From a virus (Duplodnaviria > Heunggongvirae > Uroviricota > Caudoviricetes): DNA of 31,815 nt. Shown in pieces: positions 1 to 4,930 of the stretch. The notes below the pieces were generated by a model that saw only the letters and a program-made list of their open reading frames with translations, ran no database searches and was not told where the DNA came from. Position 1 is the stretch's first letter. Each line of letters begins with the position of its first letter. The stretch lies in the IMG/VR virus record IMGVR_UViG_2603880148_000002, positions 1 to 31,815 of that record. One strand, written 5' to 3'. A program made the position numbers and the translations under genes.

Positions 1-339
1 AAGACGCAATCTCTTTCCGCTTGTACAACCCGTAACTGCGGCGCGTACAGCAAGTGTTTGTGCGGCAAGTATGCCAAACCAGTCGGCGGCATTCCGCAGC
101 CGCTTCAGGAGAGCCACGTCAGATAATGTTGCAACGTCATGGAGCTGAGCCCATGCAGTGACTTCACGTAATGACATCCCCCCGGGGCCGTAAGCCAGCC
201 CCAGACGTAGCAGAGTTGCAGCATCACGAATTTCGCGGCGGCGGGTTAGAGCCCCGGCATTACGTGCCGAAGTATCCAGTTCTTCGGGCTTACCAATATG
301 GGCCAGAATTGCTGACCAGTTATCGTGAGAGTAATTCAT
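1..339 (-). CDS. insL: IS186 transposase InsL, N-terminal 113 codons (partial, runs off window)
   Basis: Reverse-complement translation from ATG at 339-337 reads MNYSHDNWSAILAHIGKPEELDTSARNAGALTRRREIRDAATLLRLGLAYGPGGMSLREVTAWAQLHDV..., which I recognise as the IS186 transposase N-terminus. Not in the ORF track because it is truncated. Confidence 0.85.
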   Translation of the reverse strand, partial: MNYSHDNWSAILAHIGKPEELDTSARNAGALTRRREIRDAATLLRLGLAYGPGGMSLREVTAWAQLHDVATLSDVALLKRLRNAADWFGILAAQTLAVRAAVTGCTSGKRLRL

Positions 340-394
340 CGGCACGTTAAATCATATCAGGCGTAATACCACAACCCTTAAGTTAGCGCTTATG
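1..394 (-). mobile_element. IS186 (IS4 family) insertion sequence, left end only; continues beyond window start
   Basis: Contains the 5' part of the transposase gene; the sequence just before the flanking DNA (about 372-394) matches my recollection of the IS186 terminal repeat, and the flank GGGGCGGGTCCCC (395-407) is the G-run/C-run target type IS186 prefers. End coordinate approximate. Confidence 0.75.
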
Positions 395-431
395 GGGCGG
401 GTCCCCGATGGCGGTCCATTATCGGTATTCA

Positions 432-508
432 GCGTTGTTAGCTCAGCCGGACAGAGCAATTGCCTTCTAAGCAATCGGTCACTGGTTCGAATCCAGTACA
501 GCGCGCCA
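432..508 (+). tRNA. tRNA-Arg, anticodon UCU (reads AGA)
   Basis: Cloverleaf folded by hand: acceptor GCGTTGT/ACAGCGC (one G-U pair), D-stem GCTC/GAGC, anticodon stem ATTGC/GCAAT with loop CTTCTAA, 5-nt variable loop, T-stem ACTGG/CCAGT with TTCGAAT loop, discriminator G and encoded CCA. Differs from host argU at many positions, so phage-type. Confidence 0.85.
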
Positions 509-645
509 TATTCATTCTTCCAGATTCCTTTCGGCAGAGCCTTATACTGAAATATACCTGGCTCAGGATATTGTTGAAAATATTATATGTTTGTCAAAAA
601 TAAAAGTTCTGTTAAGTGTTGATTGAGTGTTTGTTATACGGTCTA

Positions 646-972
646 ATGGTTTTTTCAGCATTAAATATTTATCATTCATATGGTGTGGGTAGAGTGAATA
701 TTGATGAGGCGTCGGGGTGTTTCATCCTTAGGCAGCGTATTGATATAGTCAATGCAGAACGAGCAAAGGCCTTCAGCCGTTTGACAGTTTTGTTCTGTAC
801 TCCTGATCGTCTTTCGGGAAGAGACGTTATTATTCTGAATAGTGATGCTATACAGAGGGTTTGCGATGAGTTCATGGTGGCTAATTCAGAATTATTTGCT
901 CTTGTTCAGGAGTACAACAGAATAGCCAGGACCTGTGGTATGGATGAACTTCGGATTACTCATCTGGGGTAG
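646..972 (+). CDS. hypothetical protein in AT-rich island (start uncertain; track ORF begins at 616)
   Basis: Track ORF 616..972; first in-frame ATG at 646. No recognisable motif. Weak promoter-like TTGATT-17-TCTAAT overlaps the ATG. Confidence 0.3.
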   Translation: MVFSALNIYHSYGVGRVNIDEASGCFILRQRIDIVNAERAKAFSRLTVLFCTPDRLSGRDVIILNSDAIQRVCDEFMVANSELFALVQEYNRIARTCGMDELRITHLG

Positions 973-1364
973 ATACATATCTGGATTATCACCGGTTACG
1001 GTAAAAAGTGATTGCTTACTGTTTTTGTGAATGGCATTGCAGCAGCCGGATAATGTCAGTGCTGGCTGACGGTGTGCTGGTGGCGGGTGTGGTGGTTGCT
1101 GCTTTCCCGTTGCTGAAAAAGAAAACGCCAGACTGTTAGCCGGGTATCAGTTAGCGGGAGAAATTTTTAAATACTTCACAATTCAGGCGGTTGACTGTTG
1201 TCTGGTTTGCGGGGAGTTTGTTAAAAGAAACTGGCATGGTGAATCCCCCTGTGCGGAGGGGCAATCAGCGAGTAGGTATATGGGATAATCGCGGATTCAG
1301 GTGCTGGTACTGAATTCACCGGGAGGCACCCGGCACCATGCAATGGCACATAGCGCCACTCTCC

Positions 1365-1398
1365 AGCCCCTCTCCGGAGGGGCTGTTTATATTGATTT
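1365..1398 (+). terminator. intrinsic terminator-like hairpin
   Basis: Perfect 8-bp stem AGCCCCTC/GAGGGGCT with TCCG loop (1365-1384) followed by GTTTATATTGATTTTG. Confidence 0.45.
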
Positions 1399-1419
1399 TG
1401 TCAGATGTGAGTAAACTCC

Positions 1420-1755
1420 TTATGGACTTTGTTGTTTTAGCCCATAAGGACATATTTGCAGAGTGCAACGGTTATTAAAGCATTCATTCAATACGTTATC
1501 TGTATTTGTAGGGCATTCCTGGCTGTTTTTGATTAAATTCCAGAATGTTTTATTGAATGGTACTACGTTGTAAATGGTTACAGGCAGCACTTTGTTATTG
1601 AGCATGATGCCTGTGTGAGTCAGTGTAAATATACTTTCAGGAGGTAAGAAAGCATCCGATTGATACCAGATTATTAATTTTATTTTACTCCATATGACTG
1701 AAAAAGATATTCCGCATGATGGCTGGATAACTGTATCAATCACAATCCACTTCAT
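1420..1755 (-). CDS. hypothetical protein, 111 aa, AT-rich cargo gene
   Basis: Track ORF; good RBS AAGGAA 6-9 nt upstream of the ATG on the - strand. No recognisable domain. Confidence 0.35.
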
Positions 1756-2015
1756 TTAGTTTCCTTGTTTATGCCTTGCTGGTGATGTTCTGAAAAGTAT
1801 AAATGATATTTTTGATTGTAAACCATAGAGCAGAATTATTTTTCTGATGTTGTTTATTGTTTATTTAAATGCAGGGTGGTTTATATCTCGTCTTGTAGTT
1901 TATCCATGCATATCTGCTTGATGATGAGGTTTTTAATTAAGGTATGGTTTTGTGTTTTTTCTGTATTACATGTCAGGTATTTTAAAGAATCATTTTTCAG
2001 ATGGTGGAAAGAACC

Positions 2016-3872
2016 ATGGCATTTAAACACTATGATGTTGTCAGGGCGGCGTCGCCGTCAGATCTTGCGGAAAAGCTGACACATAAACTGAAAGAGGGCT
2101 GGCAGCCGTTTGGTAGTCCGGTGGCCATAACCCCTTATACCCTGATGCAGGCGATTGCAGCAGAAGGTGATGTGGTCGTCAGTGGTGCAACTGAGCCGGA
2201 GTGGTACTACGTCATCGTACTGGCCGGGCAATCCAATGCCATGGCTTACGGTGAAGGGCTTCCGCTTCCGGATTCTTACGATGCGCCCCACCCACGCATT
2301 AAGCAACTGGCCCGTCGCAACACAGTGACTCCCGGTGGTAAAGCATGCGCATTTAACGACATCATTCCGGCAGACCACTGCCTGCATGATGTTCAGGATA
2401 TGAGCGCACTGAATCATCCGAAGGCAGACCTGAGCAAAGGGCAGTACGGCTGTGTCGGCCAGGGCTTACATATTGCCAAAAAACTGCTTCCGTATATCCC
2501 GAATAACGCGGGGATCCTGCTGGTACCATGCTGTCGTGGTGGTTCGGCATTCACCCAGGGCGCGGAGGGGACATTCAGTGCGGACACGGGGGCCAGCCAG
2601 GATTCGGCACGCTGGGGTGTGGGTAAACCGTTATATCAGGACCTGATCGCACGCACCAAAGCGGCATTACAGAAGAACCCGAAAAATGTGTTGCTGGCGG
2701 TGTGCTGGATGCAGGGCGAATTTGACATGAGCGCTGCCACCTACGCACAGCAACCGGACCTGTTCACGGCCATGCTGAAGCAGTTCCGTACTGACCTTTC
2801 CGGATTTAACGCGCAGTGCCATGGCGGCAGTGCTGCAGTTGTACCGTGGATTTGTGGCGACACGACGTATTACTGGAAAAACACATACGGCACACAGTAT
2901 GACTCCGTCTACGGCGCGTACAAAAACAGGGAGAGCGACAACGTTTTCTTTGTGCCGTTCATGACCGACGGTAACGGCAACAACACGCCCACCAACTTAC
3001 CGGCAGAAGACCCGGATATTGCTGATGCAGGTTATTACGGCGCGCAATCCCGTAGTAATGGTAATTGGGTATCGTCAAATCGTCCGACACATTTCAGTTC
3101 ATGGGCGCGCAGGGGCATTATTTCGGATCGCCTGGCAACCGCTATTCTGAACGCAGTTGGTCGAACCAGCGCCTTCATCAGCGGTACCGCACCGGAGATT
3201 AAACCCTCGCCCGGCGGCGACACGCCATCGGGGCCGTCTGATGGTGACACATCCGTTCGTACAGTCTCCCTGCTGCCGACAGCCGGAGAGGCTGCTGCGC
3301 AGGGCTGGACCATCACCGGCGGCAGTGTTGCGCTGGAAGATGGTGTGTTTAAGGTTACCAAGCAGAGCAATAAAACCTGGTCCCTGATGCATCCGGTGGA
3401 TGACGCGGTCTCCCTGCTGACACGGGGTGGCAGACTGAGCTGTAAGTTTCGACTGTCAGGCGCACTGACCAACAACCAGTTCGGTCTGGGAATTTATCTG
3501 TATACCGATGTAGCGTTACCTGACGTCGTGGCGATGACCGGGACTGGTAACCCGTTCCTGATGTCGTTCTTCACCCAGACCACAGACGGCAAACTGAATC
3601 TGATGCATCACAAGAAAGCCGGAAACACAAAGTTGGGCGAGTTCGGGAATTACAGTAACGACTGGCAGACGCTGGAGCTGGTGTTCACCGCCGGCAGTGC
3701 CACGGTTACTCCGAAACTGAATGGAGTGGCTGGCCCGGCATTCCAGGTCATAAAAGACAGTCTGACACTGGGGCTGAATGCGCTGACGCTGACGGATATT
3801 ACCAAAAATGCAGCGTATGGCGTTGAGATAGAAAGTCTGGTGCTGGAGATAAATGCACCGGCATCATCATAA
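2016..3872 (+). CDS. nanS: prophage sialate O-acetylesterase (NanS-p-like) with C-terminal extension
   Basis: N-terminus MAFKHYDVVRAASPSDLAEKLTHKLKEGWQPFGSPVAI... followed by VIVLAGQSNAMAYGEG (SGNH/SASA-type esterase block) as in NanS-p proteins found next to lysis genes in EHEC lambdoid phages. Start taken at the second ATG (2016), which has a GGTGGA RBS; the track ORF starts at 2001. Confidence 0.8.
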   Translation: MAFKHYDVVRAASPSDLAEKLTHKLKEGWQPFGSPVAITPYTLMQAIAAEGDVVVSGATEPEWYYVIVLAGQSNAMAYGEGLPLPDSYDAPHPRIKQLARRNTVTPGGKACAFNDIIPADHCLHDVQDMSALNHPKADLSKGQYGCVGQGLHIAKKLLPYIPNNAGILLVPCCRGGSAFTQGAEGTFSADTGASQDSARWGVGKPLYQDLIARTKAALQKNPKNVLLAVCWMQGEFDMSAATYAQQPDLFTAMLKQFRTDLSGFNAQCHGGSAAVVPWICGDTTYYWKNTYGTQYDSVYGAYKNRESDNVFFVPFMTDGNGNNTPTNLPAEDPDIADAGYYGAQSRSNGNWVSSNRPTHFSSWARRGIISDRLATAILNAVGRTSAFISGTAPEIKPSPGGDTPSGPSDGDTSVRTVSLLPTAGEAAAQGWTITGGSVALEDGVFKVTKQSNKTWSLMHPVDDAVSLLTRGGRLSCKFRLSGALTNNQFGLGIYLYTDVALPDVVAMTGTGNPFLMSFFTQTTDGKLNLMHHKKAGNTKLGEFGNYSNDWQTLELVFTAGSATVTPKLNGVAGPAFQVIKDSLTLGLNALTLTDITKNAAYGVEIESLVLEINAPASS

Positions 3873-3956
3873 AAAGTGAGCCAGTCAAATGGAAGGTATC
3901 GTTAAACTCACCGGTAGTGTCAGTGGGTCGTCTGAGATGCCTGCATGAGTTATCAG

Positions 3957-3988
3957 AGCCATCAGTACTTAACTGGTGGCTTTTTTTA
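3957..3988 (+). terminator. intrinsic terminator-like hairpin upstream of the holin gene
   Basis: Stem AGCCATCAG/CTGGTGGCT (9 bp, one G-U) with 7-nt loop followed by TTTTTTT. Confidence 0.5.
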
Positions 3989-4022
3989 TTGTTGTCAGCT
4001 TCCGGATAACGGGAGACGGGGT

Positions 4023-4238
4023 ATGTACCAGATGGAAAAAATCACAACAGGTGTGTCATACACCACGTCAGCGGTGGGAACGGGCTACTGGTTCCTGCAG
4101 TTGCTGGACAGGGTTTCCCCGTCTCAGTGGGCGGCAATAGGCGTGCTGGGGAGTCTGCTGTTTGGGCTGCTGACATATCTGACTAACCTGTATTTCAAAA
4201 TCAGAGAGGACCGTCGTAAGGCTGCACGGGGAGAGTAA
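4023..4238 (+). CDS. S: class II holin (phage 21 S-like pinholin), 71 aa, with dual-start motif
   Basis: [71 protein letters not shown] closely resembles the phage 21 S pinholin as I recall it. Met1 and Met4 give the usual two starts; RBS GGGAGA upstream of 4023. The track ORF extends further upstream, to 3945. Confidence 0.85.
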
Positions 4239-4242
4239 TTCA

Positions 4243-4587
4243 ATGACTCAAAACTATGAACTGATTGTGAAAGGGATCCGCAATTTTGAGAATAAAGTTA
4301 CGATAACTTTAGCGTTACGGGACAAAAAACGCTTTGACGGTGAAATTTTTGACCTGGACATCTCGCTGGACCGTGTTGAAGGTGCCGCGCTGGAGTTTTA
4401 TGAGGCAGCAGCCAGAAGGAGCATCAGACAGGTCTTCCTGGATGTTGCTGCCGGGTTATGTGAAGGGGATGAGCAGTCGCCGGAAAAGCGCCCCGTAATT
4501 TTAGAGGCGCAGGATGTGTTGATAACCTACAGAGGAAAACTACCGGGAATAATTACGGGTTCTCTGAAGAGTCCGCCGAAATGGTAA
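4243..4587 (+). CDS. hypothetical protein, 114 aa, inserted between holin and endolysin
   Basis: Track ORF starting 5 nt after the holin stop with a GGAGAG-like RBS. No recognisable motif. Confidence 0.4.
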   Translation: MTQNYELIVKGIRNFENKVTITLALRDKKRFDGEIFDLDISLDRVEGAALEFYEAAARRSIRQVFLDVAAGLCEGDEQSPEKRPVILEAQDVLITYRGKLPGIITGSLKSPPKW

Positions 4588-4825
4588 TTTTACCAGCATA
4601 TTTTTCATCCAGTAATACAGCAAGCCGCCTGAAAGAGTCTTGTTGTTCCTGAGACCATTTGGGATTGCATGATTCAAACTGGATTGATGCCAGCGTTGAT
4701 TGCATCTGTTCCCTTGGAATTGAGAATGCCAGATATGAGAAGGCGACGGTAAGGGTATTCACGTCTTCCCGAAGCCTGGAAATGCTGTCGAGCAACTCCT
4801 GTAGAGAAATGGTGTTATTGTCCAT
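4553..4825 (-). CDS. hypothetical protein, 90 aa, convergent with and overlapping the 3' end of the 114-aa ORF
   Basis: Track ORF; AGGA RBS about 9 nt upstream of the ATG on the - strand. No recognisable motif. Confidence 0.3.
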   Translation of the reverse strand: MDNNTISLQELLDSISRLREDVNTLTVAFSYLAFSIPREQMQSTLASIQFESCNPKWSQEQQDSFRRLAVLLDEKYAGKITISADSSENP

Positions 4826-4930
4826 AAATAATCCTCATGATTGTATTGACCTGTTAGCAGCCTGAGGCAACAGGCTGGAACTGATAAACATATCCAGGGC
4901 TCAGAAACCGATAAATCCTGATAAATATCC

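Follow-up and report, generated by a model that had tools for sequence, protein, structure and literature searches.

Results

Gene content of the interval between the tRNA-Arg and esterase genes

We analysed a stretch of 31,815 nucleotides from a virus of the class Caudoviricetes (IMG/VR record IMGVR_UViG_2603880148_000002, positions 1 to 31,815; hereafter the window), and in it the interval 509-2015, which corresponds to the region where Shiga toxin (Stx) phages carry stxAB. From left to right this interval contains a coding sequence of the family phrog_2873 (694-972, plus strand, 92 amino acids), a gene for a DUF3927 peptide (1008-1139, plus strand), the small RNA (sRNA) gene STnc100 (1205-1394, plus strand) and the anti-adaptor gene iraL (1420-1755, minus strand) with its 5′ untranslated region (1756-1788, minus strand). 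It is bordered by a phage tRNA-Arg gene (432-508) and a nanS-p-type esterase gene (2001-3872), as had been stated in a sequence-only reading of this DNA. That reading described the interval as uncharacterised AT-rich cargo with two convergent open reading frames (ORFs), 646-972 on the plus strand and 1420-1755 on the minus strand. Both ORFs exist, but a third one at 1008-1139 had been overlooked, and the first ORF probably starts at GTG 694. The interval is very probably a mosaic cluster of morons (accessory genes) of a lambdoid prophage, located in the region from the antiterminator gene Q to the lysis genes, in which two cargo slots surround a conserved sRNA gene. The identities, junctions, coding constraint and distribution were determined here, whereas the biochemistry of IraL and the expression and Hfq binding of STnc100 are taken from the literature.

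Only a part of the interval substitutes for stx

When searching the window with Stx2A and Stx2B by tblastn, only scattered short matches were obtained (E = 0.04-9), and blastn of the stx2 region of phage 1717 against the window gave zero matches. The earlier statement that no stx-like sequence is present is thereby upheld. Both sides of the interval could be aligned to Stx2 phages by blastn. Window 401-521 aligns with positions 2515-2634 of phage 1717 (92.6% identity) and window 1176-2100 with positions 4001-4903, downstream of stx2B (68.7% identity), and the stx2cAB genes of phage 1717 are located at 2715-3955, between these two segments. For phage 933W, the left junction is the same (window 401-516), and the right-hand matches cover window 1176-1342 and 2015-2098. 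As the flanks align to 1717 and 933W with stx2AB in between, only window 522-1175 (654 bp) substitutes for stxAB. Judged by these alignments and the stx2AB annotation, the part of the interval that truly serves as alternative cargo in place of stx is 522-1175.

The synteny on which the sequence-only reading relied thus agrees with the junctions to both phages, and its proposal that the interval replaces stx applies to 522-1175. It does not apply to 1176-2015, since DNA homologous to that part coexists with stx2. Both 1717 and 933W have STnc100 and nanS-p in addition to stx, and phage 1717 further harbours a gene of the Ira family.

Comparison of the loci gives a map with two slots, slot A between the tRNA-Arg gene and STnc100 and slot B between STnc100 and the esterase gene. 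The window shares with 933W and 1717 the order tRNA-Arg, cargo, STnc100, second cargo, nanS-p and holin as well as the homologous flanks, but slot A contains stx2AB in 933W and stx2cAB in 1717, whereas it contains the phrog_2873 and DUF3927 genes in the window and in CFT073. Slot B differs as well, with AsxR in 933W, a third clade of Ira genes in 1717 and iraL in the window and CFT073. In the related loci L009 and L010, slot A is occupied by an AraC-type regulator gene followed by the phrog_2873 and DUF3927 genes, and in phage vB_EcoS-640R1 duplicated DUF3927-STnc100 units in slot A are combined with an iraL-type gene in slot B. Among the loci compared here, in a comparison of the kind that the sequence-only reading had proposed, the stx position is occupied by stx2AB, by phrog_2873 with DUF3927, or by an AraC-type gene with phrog_2873. 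The anti-sRNA AsxR of 933W lies at 3985-4037 on the minus strand. The Ira gene of phage 1717 (4252-4575, minus strand) encodes a protein with 74.8% identity to IraL and 65.4% to IraM, and no characterisation of this clade came up in the literature that we found.

Within 5426 complete Escherichia coli genomes, the slot A cargo 522-1175 was found in 1389 and the iraL block in 1446, and the two are contiguous in 864. In the phage collection, the shared part is limited to window 400-1342 for phage mEp460_ev081 and to 1176-2100 for three other phages.

The base composition was also compared. The guanine-plus-cytosine (GC) content of 509-2000 is 39.7%, compared to 55.5% in the rest of the window, in agreement with the AT-rich block described earlier. 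However, this block is not uniform, as the DUF3927 ORF has 51.5% GC and STnc100 55.3%. Lower values were obtained for 509-615 (30.8%), the stx-position substitute 522-1175 as a whole (41.4%), the ORF 694-972 (44.1%), iraL (35.1%) and the spacer between iraL and the esterase gene (29.4%). The suggestion that the DNA was separately acquired is reasonable, and both the contrast in GC and the mosaic nature of the junctions support it.

The ORF at 1420-1755 encodes IraL

The minus-strand ORF 1420-1755 encodes a protein of 111 amino acids of the IraM family of RssB anti-adaptors. It matches the NCBIfam model NF007393 (IraM) with 162 bits (cut-off 121) over residues 1-110 and the crystallised IraM fragment PDB 8twd with E = 9.1e-32. 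It is identical to WP_000871291.1, which is also the label given to this ORF by RefSeq in 100%-identical genomes. In the potB prophage of uropathogenic E. coli CFT073, the gene for WP_000871291.1 has a DUF3927 gene on one side and a DUF1737 fragment on the other, and the translation from the window is 100% identical to this CFT073 protein. For CFT073 IraL it has been shown experimentally that it is an RssB anti-adaptor that stabilises RpoS (PMC4045071; Hryckowian et al. 2014, mBio). This 100% identity, together with 61.7% identity to K-12 IraM, places the ORF in the IraL clade and not in the IraM clade; about 59% to K-12 IraM and at least 95% to CFT073 iraL would be expected of an IraL. As read from the sequence, an AAGGA Shine-Dalgarno motif is present 7-8 nt ahead of the ATG, which bears out the good ribosome-binding site noted before.

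IraL and K-12 IraM are 61.7% identical over 107 aligned residues in our alignment, and a value of 58.9% has been published using ClustalW (PMC4045071). The IraM residues that contact RssB are I4, I6, W22, K26 and I42 together with T13, C14, F18 and W30 (bioRxiv 10.1101/2023.01.07.523045). Eight of these nine are identical in IraL, and the ninth is changed from threonine to serine (T13S). The two genes differ in their location, with iraM adjoining the e14 prophage and iraL of the window situated in a lambdoid late region. They also differ in their reported activity: IraM is induced by Mg2+ starvation and binds both domains of RssB, whereas IraL is active in logarithmic phase and its binding is confined to the N-terminal domain (PMC4045071).

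The published 30-nt 5′ end of the iraL transcript, ACATCACCAGCAAGGCATAAACAAGGAAAC, matches 1759-1788 on the minus strand with 0 mismatches (chance expectation 0). [quoted passage not shown] We predict a sigma-70 promoter just upstream of this start, at roughly 1789-1830 on the minus strand. A direct repeat resembling a PhoP box, TGTTTATTGTTTATTTA, is located at 1851-1867 on the plus strand with one mismatch, 63-79 nt upstream of the iraL start. Such sites are not enriched in the window (4 found, compared to 4.2 expected in shuffled sequences). By analogy with the PhoP-controlled paralogue iraM, control of iraL by PhoP would be a lead at most.

Among known systems, the CFT073 potB prophage with its iraL locus is one of the closest. 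Window 398-2100 has 98.4% DNA identity to this prophage, and the protein, the 5′ untranslated region and the sequence at the mapped start are identical. Both loci have tRNA-Arg, the DUF3927 gene, STnc100, the esterase gene, a class II holin gene and YdfR as neighbours. Upstream, however, CFT073 has three tRNA genes and IS200C, whereas the window has the end of an IS421 element and a single tRNA-Arg gene. The esterase gene of CFT073 is cut down to a DUF1737 fragment, whereas that of the window is full length (623 amino acids). The locus is an ordinary one that in essence has already been published, apart from the unannotated phrog_2873 gene.

The structured stretch between the convergent ORFs is an STnc100 gene

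The non-coding stretch between the two ORFs had been described as structured, which fits well with our results. Positions 1205-1394 on the plus strand match the Rfam family STnc100 (RF02076) over model positions 1-206 with 132.4 bits (gathering score 47, E = 4.9e-30). The z-score of the fold is -2.26. An intrinsic terminator is found at 1364-1385, with a stem of nine pairs followed by TTTATATT, and the same hairpin is present in the minimum free energy fold.

An STnc100 gene likewise comes right after stx2B in 933W (208 bits, at a distance of 75 nt) and after stx2cB in phage 1717 (159 bits), and a copy 75 nt downstream of stx2B has been reported (PMC12370729). The strain EDL933 has eleven STnc100 copies in its prophages; these are transcribed, and one has been confirmed by Northern blotting (PMC5331693). 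The Hfq-bound sRNA EcOnc27/sRNA103 overlaps the stx2-adjacent copy (PMC12711010). A discrete transcript associated with Hfq is reported for the paralogues of EDL933 and Sakai only (PMC5331693, PMC12711010). In a preprint from 2026, STnc100 is connected with PasD, and its association with esterase genes is pointed out. The copy of the window resembles this STnc100/EcOnc27/PasD group in its full-length match to RF02076, including the terminator, and its position next to an esterase gene fits the reported synteny. It differs from the stx2-adjacent copy of 933W in its lower score (132 compared to 208 bits). The 5′ part is divergent in the window, and in Stx2 phages this part contains variants associated with haemolytic uraemic syndrome and a stretch complementary to stxB. 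By comparison with its paralogues, STnc100 of the window most likely acts as an Hfq-dependent sRNA.

In AR_0069 and CFT073, the Prokaryotic Genome Annotation Pipeline (PGAP) lists a partial pseudogene for a hypothetical protein at 1224-1349 on the minus strand, antisense over STnc100. This is probably an annotation artefact.

A conserved 92-amino-acid gene lies in the stx position

The plus-strand ORF 694-972 matches the phrog_2873 profile over its full length (E = 2.5e-58). All 10 aligned family members match phrog_2873, and 9 of the 10 also match phrog_4827; the function of both families is unknown. For the frame 616-972, 21 relatives were found in the databases, and every one with a source name comes from E. 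coli or Shigella. In one clade among them, of about 57-62% identity, the frame is still open. An exhaustive profile search yielded further relatives of 91-106 amino acids with 22-41% identity. The motifs of the family are ER-x-x-AFS-x-L-x-V, a P-D/E loop (TPDRxSG in the closest relatives), AN-x-EL and EYN-x-IA. In the phage collection, the gene was detected by tblastn in one record only, mEp460_ev081.

A comparison to the copy of L009, which is 62% identical, gave a ratio of nonsynonymous to synonymous substitution rates (dN/dS) of 0.27 for this frame, compared to 1.16 and 0.91 for the remaining two; third codon positions account for 43 of the 88 differences. The start GTG 694 is kept in three of the four diverged relatives that were checked, and the fourth has an ATG. 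In L009 and L010, an in-frame stop codon lies five codons 5′ of the conserved GTG, which rules out 616 or 646 as the conserved start. L013 and L015 have a Shine-Dalgarno motif, GGAG or GGGAG, ahead of the equivalent start. Since the conserved core begins at GTG 694 and the stops in L009 and L010 and the Shine-Dalgarno motifs in L013 and L015 agree with it, 694-972 is likely to be the coding sequence, and on this sequence evidence it is probably a real one, encoding 92 amino acids. The AlphaFold model, which was built from 10 sequences, has a mean predicted local distance difference test score (pLDDT) of 88.6 and consists of two antiparallel helices, residues 3-34 and 50-81, with the conserved TPDRxSG loop in between.

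In each diverged relative whose locus could be placed, the phrog_2873 gene lies in the stretch from the antiterminator gene (Q) to the lysis genes. In four of the five diverged loci an AraC/HTH_18 gene (241-242 amino acids, phrog_1450) is found upstream of it, in three of them directly adjacent. This AraC-type gene lies at 3969-4694 in L009, 164-889 in L010, 3142-3870 in L013 and 2933-3658 in L005, and in L005 an IS3-family element is inserted between it and the phrog_2873 gene. The AraC-type and phrog_2873 genes may form a functional pair. The gene of the window shares the full-length match to phrog_2873 with these relatives but, unlike several of them, does not follow an AraC-type regulator gene. 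The homology to L009 starts only after the AraC stop (window 619 corresponds to L009 4716, and the AraC-type gene ends at 4694). From its fold and the linkage to AraC-type genes, we suggest with low confidence that the 92-amino-acid protein could be a regulatory or adaptor-type factor that works by protein contact.

The sequence-only reading had proposed homology searches with both of its ORFs and considered their functions unknown. These searches identify 1420-1755 as IraL and place 646-972 in phrog_2873, a family of unknown function. Uncharacterised is therefore not the right term for 1420-1755 or for the RNA, as IraL and STnc100 are known, but it is correct for the phrog_2873 gene and, in essence, for the DUF3927 peptide. 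Both ORFs are conserved, with a dN/dS of 0.27 for the first and the IraL family match for the second, contrary to the possibility, raised in the same reading, that they lack conservation.

The DUF3927 peptide gene

The gene at 1008-1139 on the plus strand encodes a hydrophobic peptide of 43 amino acids. It matches Pfam PF13064 with 92.7 bits (cut-off 25) and phrog_1470 with E = 1.5e-11, and it is annotated by PGAP in relatives. The term 'TciB-like', which is used for this peptide, should be read as a provisional annotation name, and a literature search for DUF3927 retrieved no functional study. In L013 (4392-5038) a TerB-like gene lies directly upstream of the DUF3927 gene and overlaps it, which fits the 'TciA/TciB' naming of phrog_1470. 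The window has no TerB-like gene.

DUF3927 genes tend to precede STnc100, while Stx phages carry STnc100 without DUF3927. Phage vB_EcoS-640R1 harbours, at 3119-3940, two tandem units of a DUF3927-like ORF and STnc100 (138 and 132.5 bits) before its iraL-type gene. This arrangement suggests that the DUF3927 gene and STnc100 duplicate as one unit.

Flanking genes

The tRNA-Arg gene at 432-508 (plus strand, anticodon tct) was identified by ARAGORN and by the Rfam tRNA model (68 bits). It corresponds to argO of 933W, and the stx slot has its left anchor here; the region has 93% identity to 933W 2265-2380 and 92.6% to phage 1717 2515-2634. Directly 5′ of it, window 1-393 is the end of an IS421 (IS4-like) insertion sequence, with the transposase gene on the minus strand and its ATG at 339. 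Close relatives have tRNA-Ile, more tRNA genes or a methylase gene where the window has the IS421 end.

The right-hand anchor is the conserved esterase gene at 2001-3872 (plus strand), which encodes a SASA carbohydrate esterase of 623 amino acids. It has the nanS-p architecture of DUF1737 (E = 4.7e-16), SASA (5.2e-13) and DUF6645 (2.2e-19) in Pfam, matches phrog_143 and is annotated by PGAP in relatives. It is followed by a holin gene, a YdfR-family gene and a lysozyme gene, and then by the late genes of a lambdoid prophage.

Discussion

In our interpretation, slot A carries the phrog_2873 gene and the DUF3927 membrane-peptide gene, both in the direction of late transcription, and in an intact prophage Q-dependent late transcription would extend across these small plus-strand genes. 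STnc100 is one copy of a multicopy prophage sRNA that ends in an intrinsic terminator, copies of which are expressed and bind Hfq in enterohaemorrhagic E. coli. In slot B, iraL would be transcribed from its own sigma-70 promoter on the opposite strand, against late transcription, as is typical for a moron expressed in the lysogen. IraL would then bind RssB at its N-terminal domain and block the delivery of RpoS to ClpXP, so that RpoS would be stable in logarithmic phase. Of the functions that the interval may have, stabilisation of RpoS by IraL is the best supported.

A different view is that the whole of 509-2015 is a single, uncharacterised block that was separately acquired and replaced stx. 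The lack of stx, the low GC content and the position between a phage tRNA gene and nanS-p all agree with this. However, phage 1717, and in part 933W, has DNA homologous to 1176-2100 alongside stx2, IraL and STnc100 have been described in the literature, and the parts of the mosaic have different distributions, as seen from mEp460_ev081 with 400-1342 only and three phages with 1176-2100 only. We consider a single block very unlikely; the alignments already refute it for 1176-2015, leaving 522-1175 as the only part to which it still applies. Still less credible, to the point of being extremely unlikely, is that the region represents a decayed remnant of stx or of an AraC-type regulator gene instead of functional cargo. 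Related prophages do have an AraC-type gene just upstream of phrog_2873 that is missing in the window, and PGAP lists the partial pseudogene at 1224-1349. The region, on the other hand, has no nucleotide or protein similarity to stx, the homology to the AraC variant begins only past the AraC stop codon, and the pseudogene, which lies antisense over STnc100, is most simply explained as an artefact. All three ORFs are intact and at least 95% conserved in over a thousand genomes, which argues equally against the remnant of a known gene that the sequence-only reading had named as a possibility.

The ORF that begins at 616, 646 or 694 and ends at 972 could also be a chance open frame in an AT-rich spacer, which is how RefSeq treats it. 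It has no PGAP annotation in the records inspected and no match in Pfam or NCBIfam, the Shine-Dalgarno motif of the window copy is weak, and a promoter scan gave no more sites than expected by chance (6 found, 4.4 expected), with none assigned to the plus-strand genes or STnc100. A chance frame would not be expected to have a dN/dS far below the values of about 1 in the other frames, an excess of third-position changes, distant full-length relatives in which the motifs are kept, or matches to phrog_2873 and phrog_4827. Together with the confident structure model from only 10 sequences and the conserved position between Q and lysis genes, this makes a chance frame quite unlikely. A further question is whether the DUF3927 gene and STnc100 form one functional unit, in which the sRNA would regulate the peptide mRNA in cis or arise from its 3′ end by processing, much like a toxin-type peptide and its RNA partner, and neither would be a module of its own. 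STnc100 follows within about 65 nt of DUF3927 here, the pair is tandemly duplicated in vB_EcoS-640R1 and recurs in L009 and L005, and no convincing sigma-70 promoter was seen directly upstream of STnc100. In Stx2 phages, however, STnc100 follows stx2B with no DUF3927 gene, in L013, where STnc100 was not detected, the DUF3927 gene adjoins a holin gene, and as the sRNA and the peptide gene share a strand without overlapping, there is no sign of antisense pairing. Such a unit therefore seems rather unlikely.

Several points weigh against our interpretation of a moron cluster. The contact residues that are kept in IraL do not prove the same mode of binding to RssB, and the expression of this copy is predicted by analogy with identical or paralogous copies elsewhere. 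The IS421 insertion may separate the plus-strand genes behind it from the late promoter and so interrupt their transcription. For the 92-amino-acid gene, the Shine-Dalgarno sequence in the window, GGTGTGGG, is weak, and the gene is unannotated in all RefSeq records inspected; among the full-length matches to 522-1175 that were listed, the annotation consists of the DUF3927 gene only. A profile search of this protein against the PDB gave only matches with E of at least 0.1 (noise from UPF0335 and RAD23), Foldseek against the PDB gave generic helical hairpins with E of at least 0.23 (designed heterodimers, EmrA and prefoldin), none of them informative on function, and PADLOC found nothing at E of 0.1 or below for the three small proteins. 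As the window has no AraC-type gene, the idea of an AraC-type partner does not apply in cis here.

We tentatively propose, as a possibility that is more speculative than likely, that the 92-amino-acid protein is a real lysogenic-conversion factor in the Shiga toxin slot. It might be a small protein-binding regulator, either as a partner or modulator of the AraC-type regulators found before it in related prophages, which may resemble the Psr/PatE regulators known from enterohaemorrhagic E. coli, or, in parallel to IraL, as a modulator of a host regulator. Purifying selection acts on the gene, and about one in four complete E. coli genomes contains the segment in which it lies, although the gene is unannotated in the RefSeq records inspected, which makes it a cheap target for work on the functions of prophage morons. 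The map of this hotspot with its two slots indicates that RpoS stabilisers of the Ira family travel together with stx2c and do not replace it.

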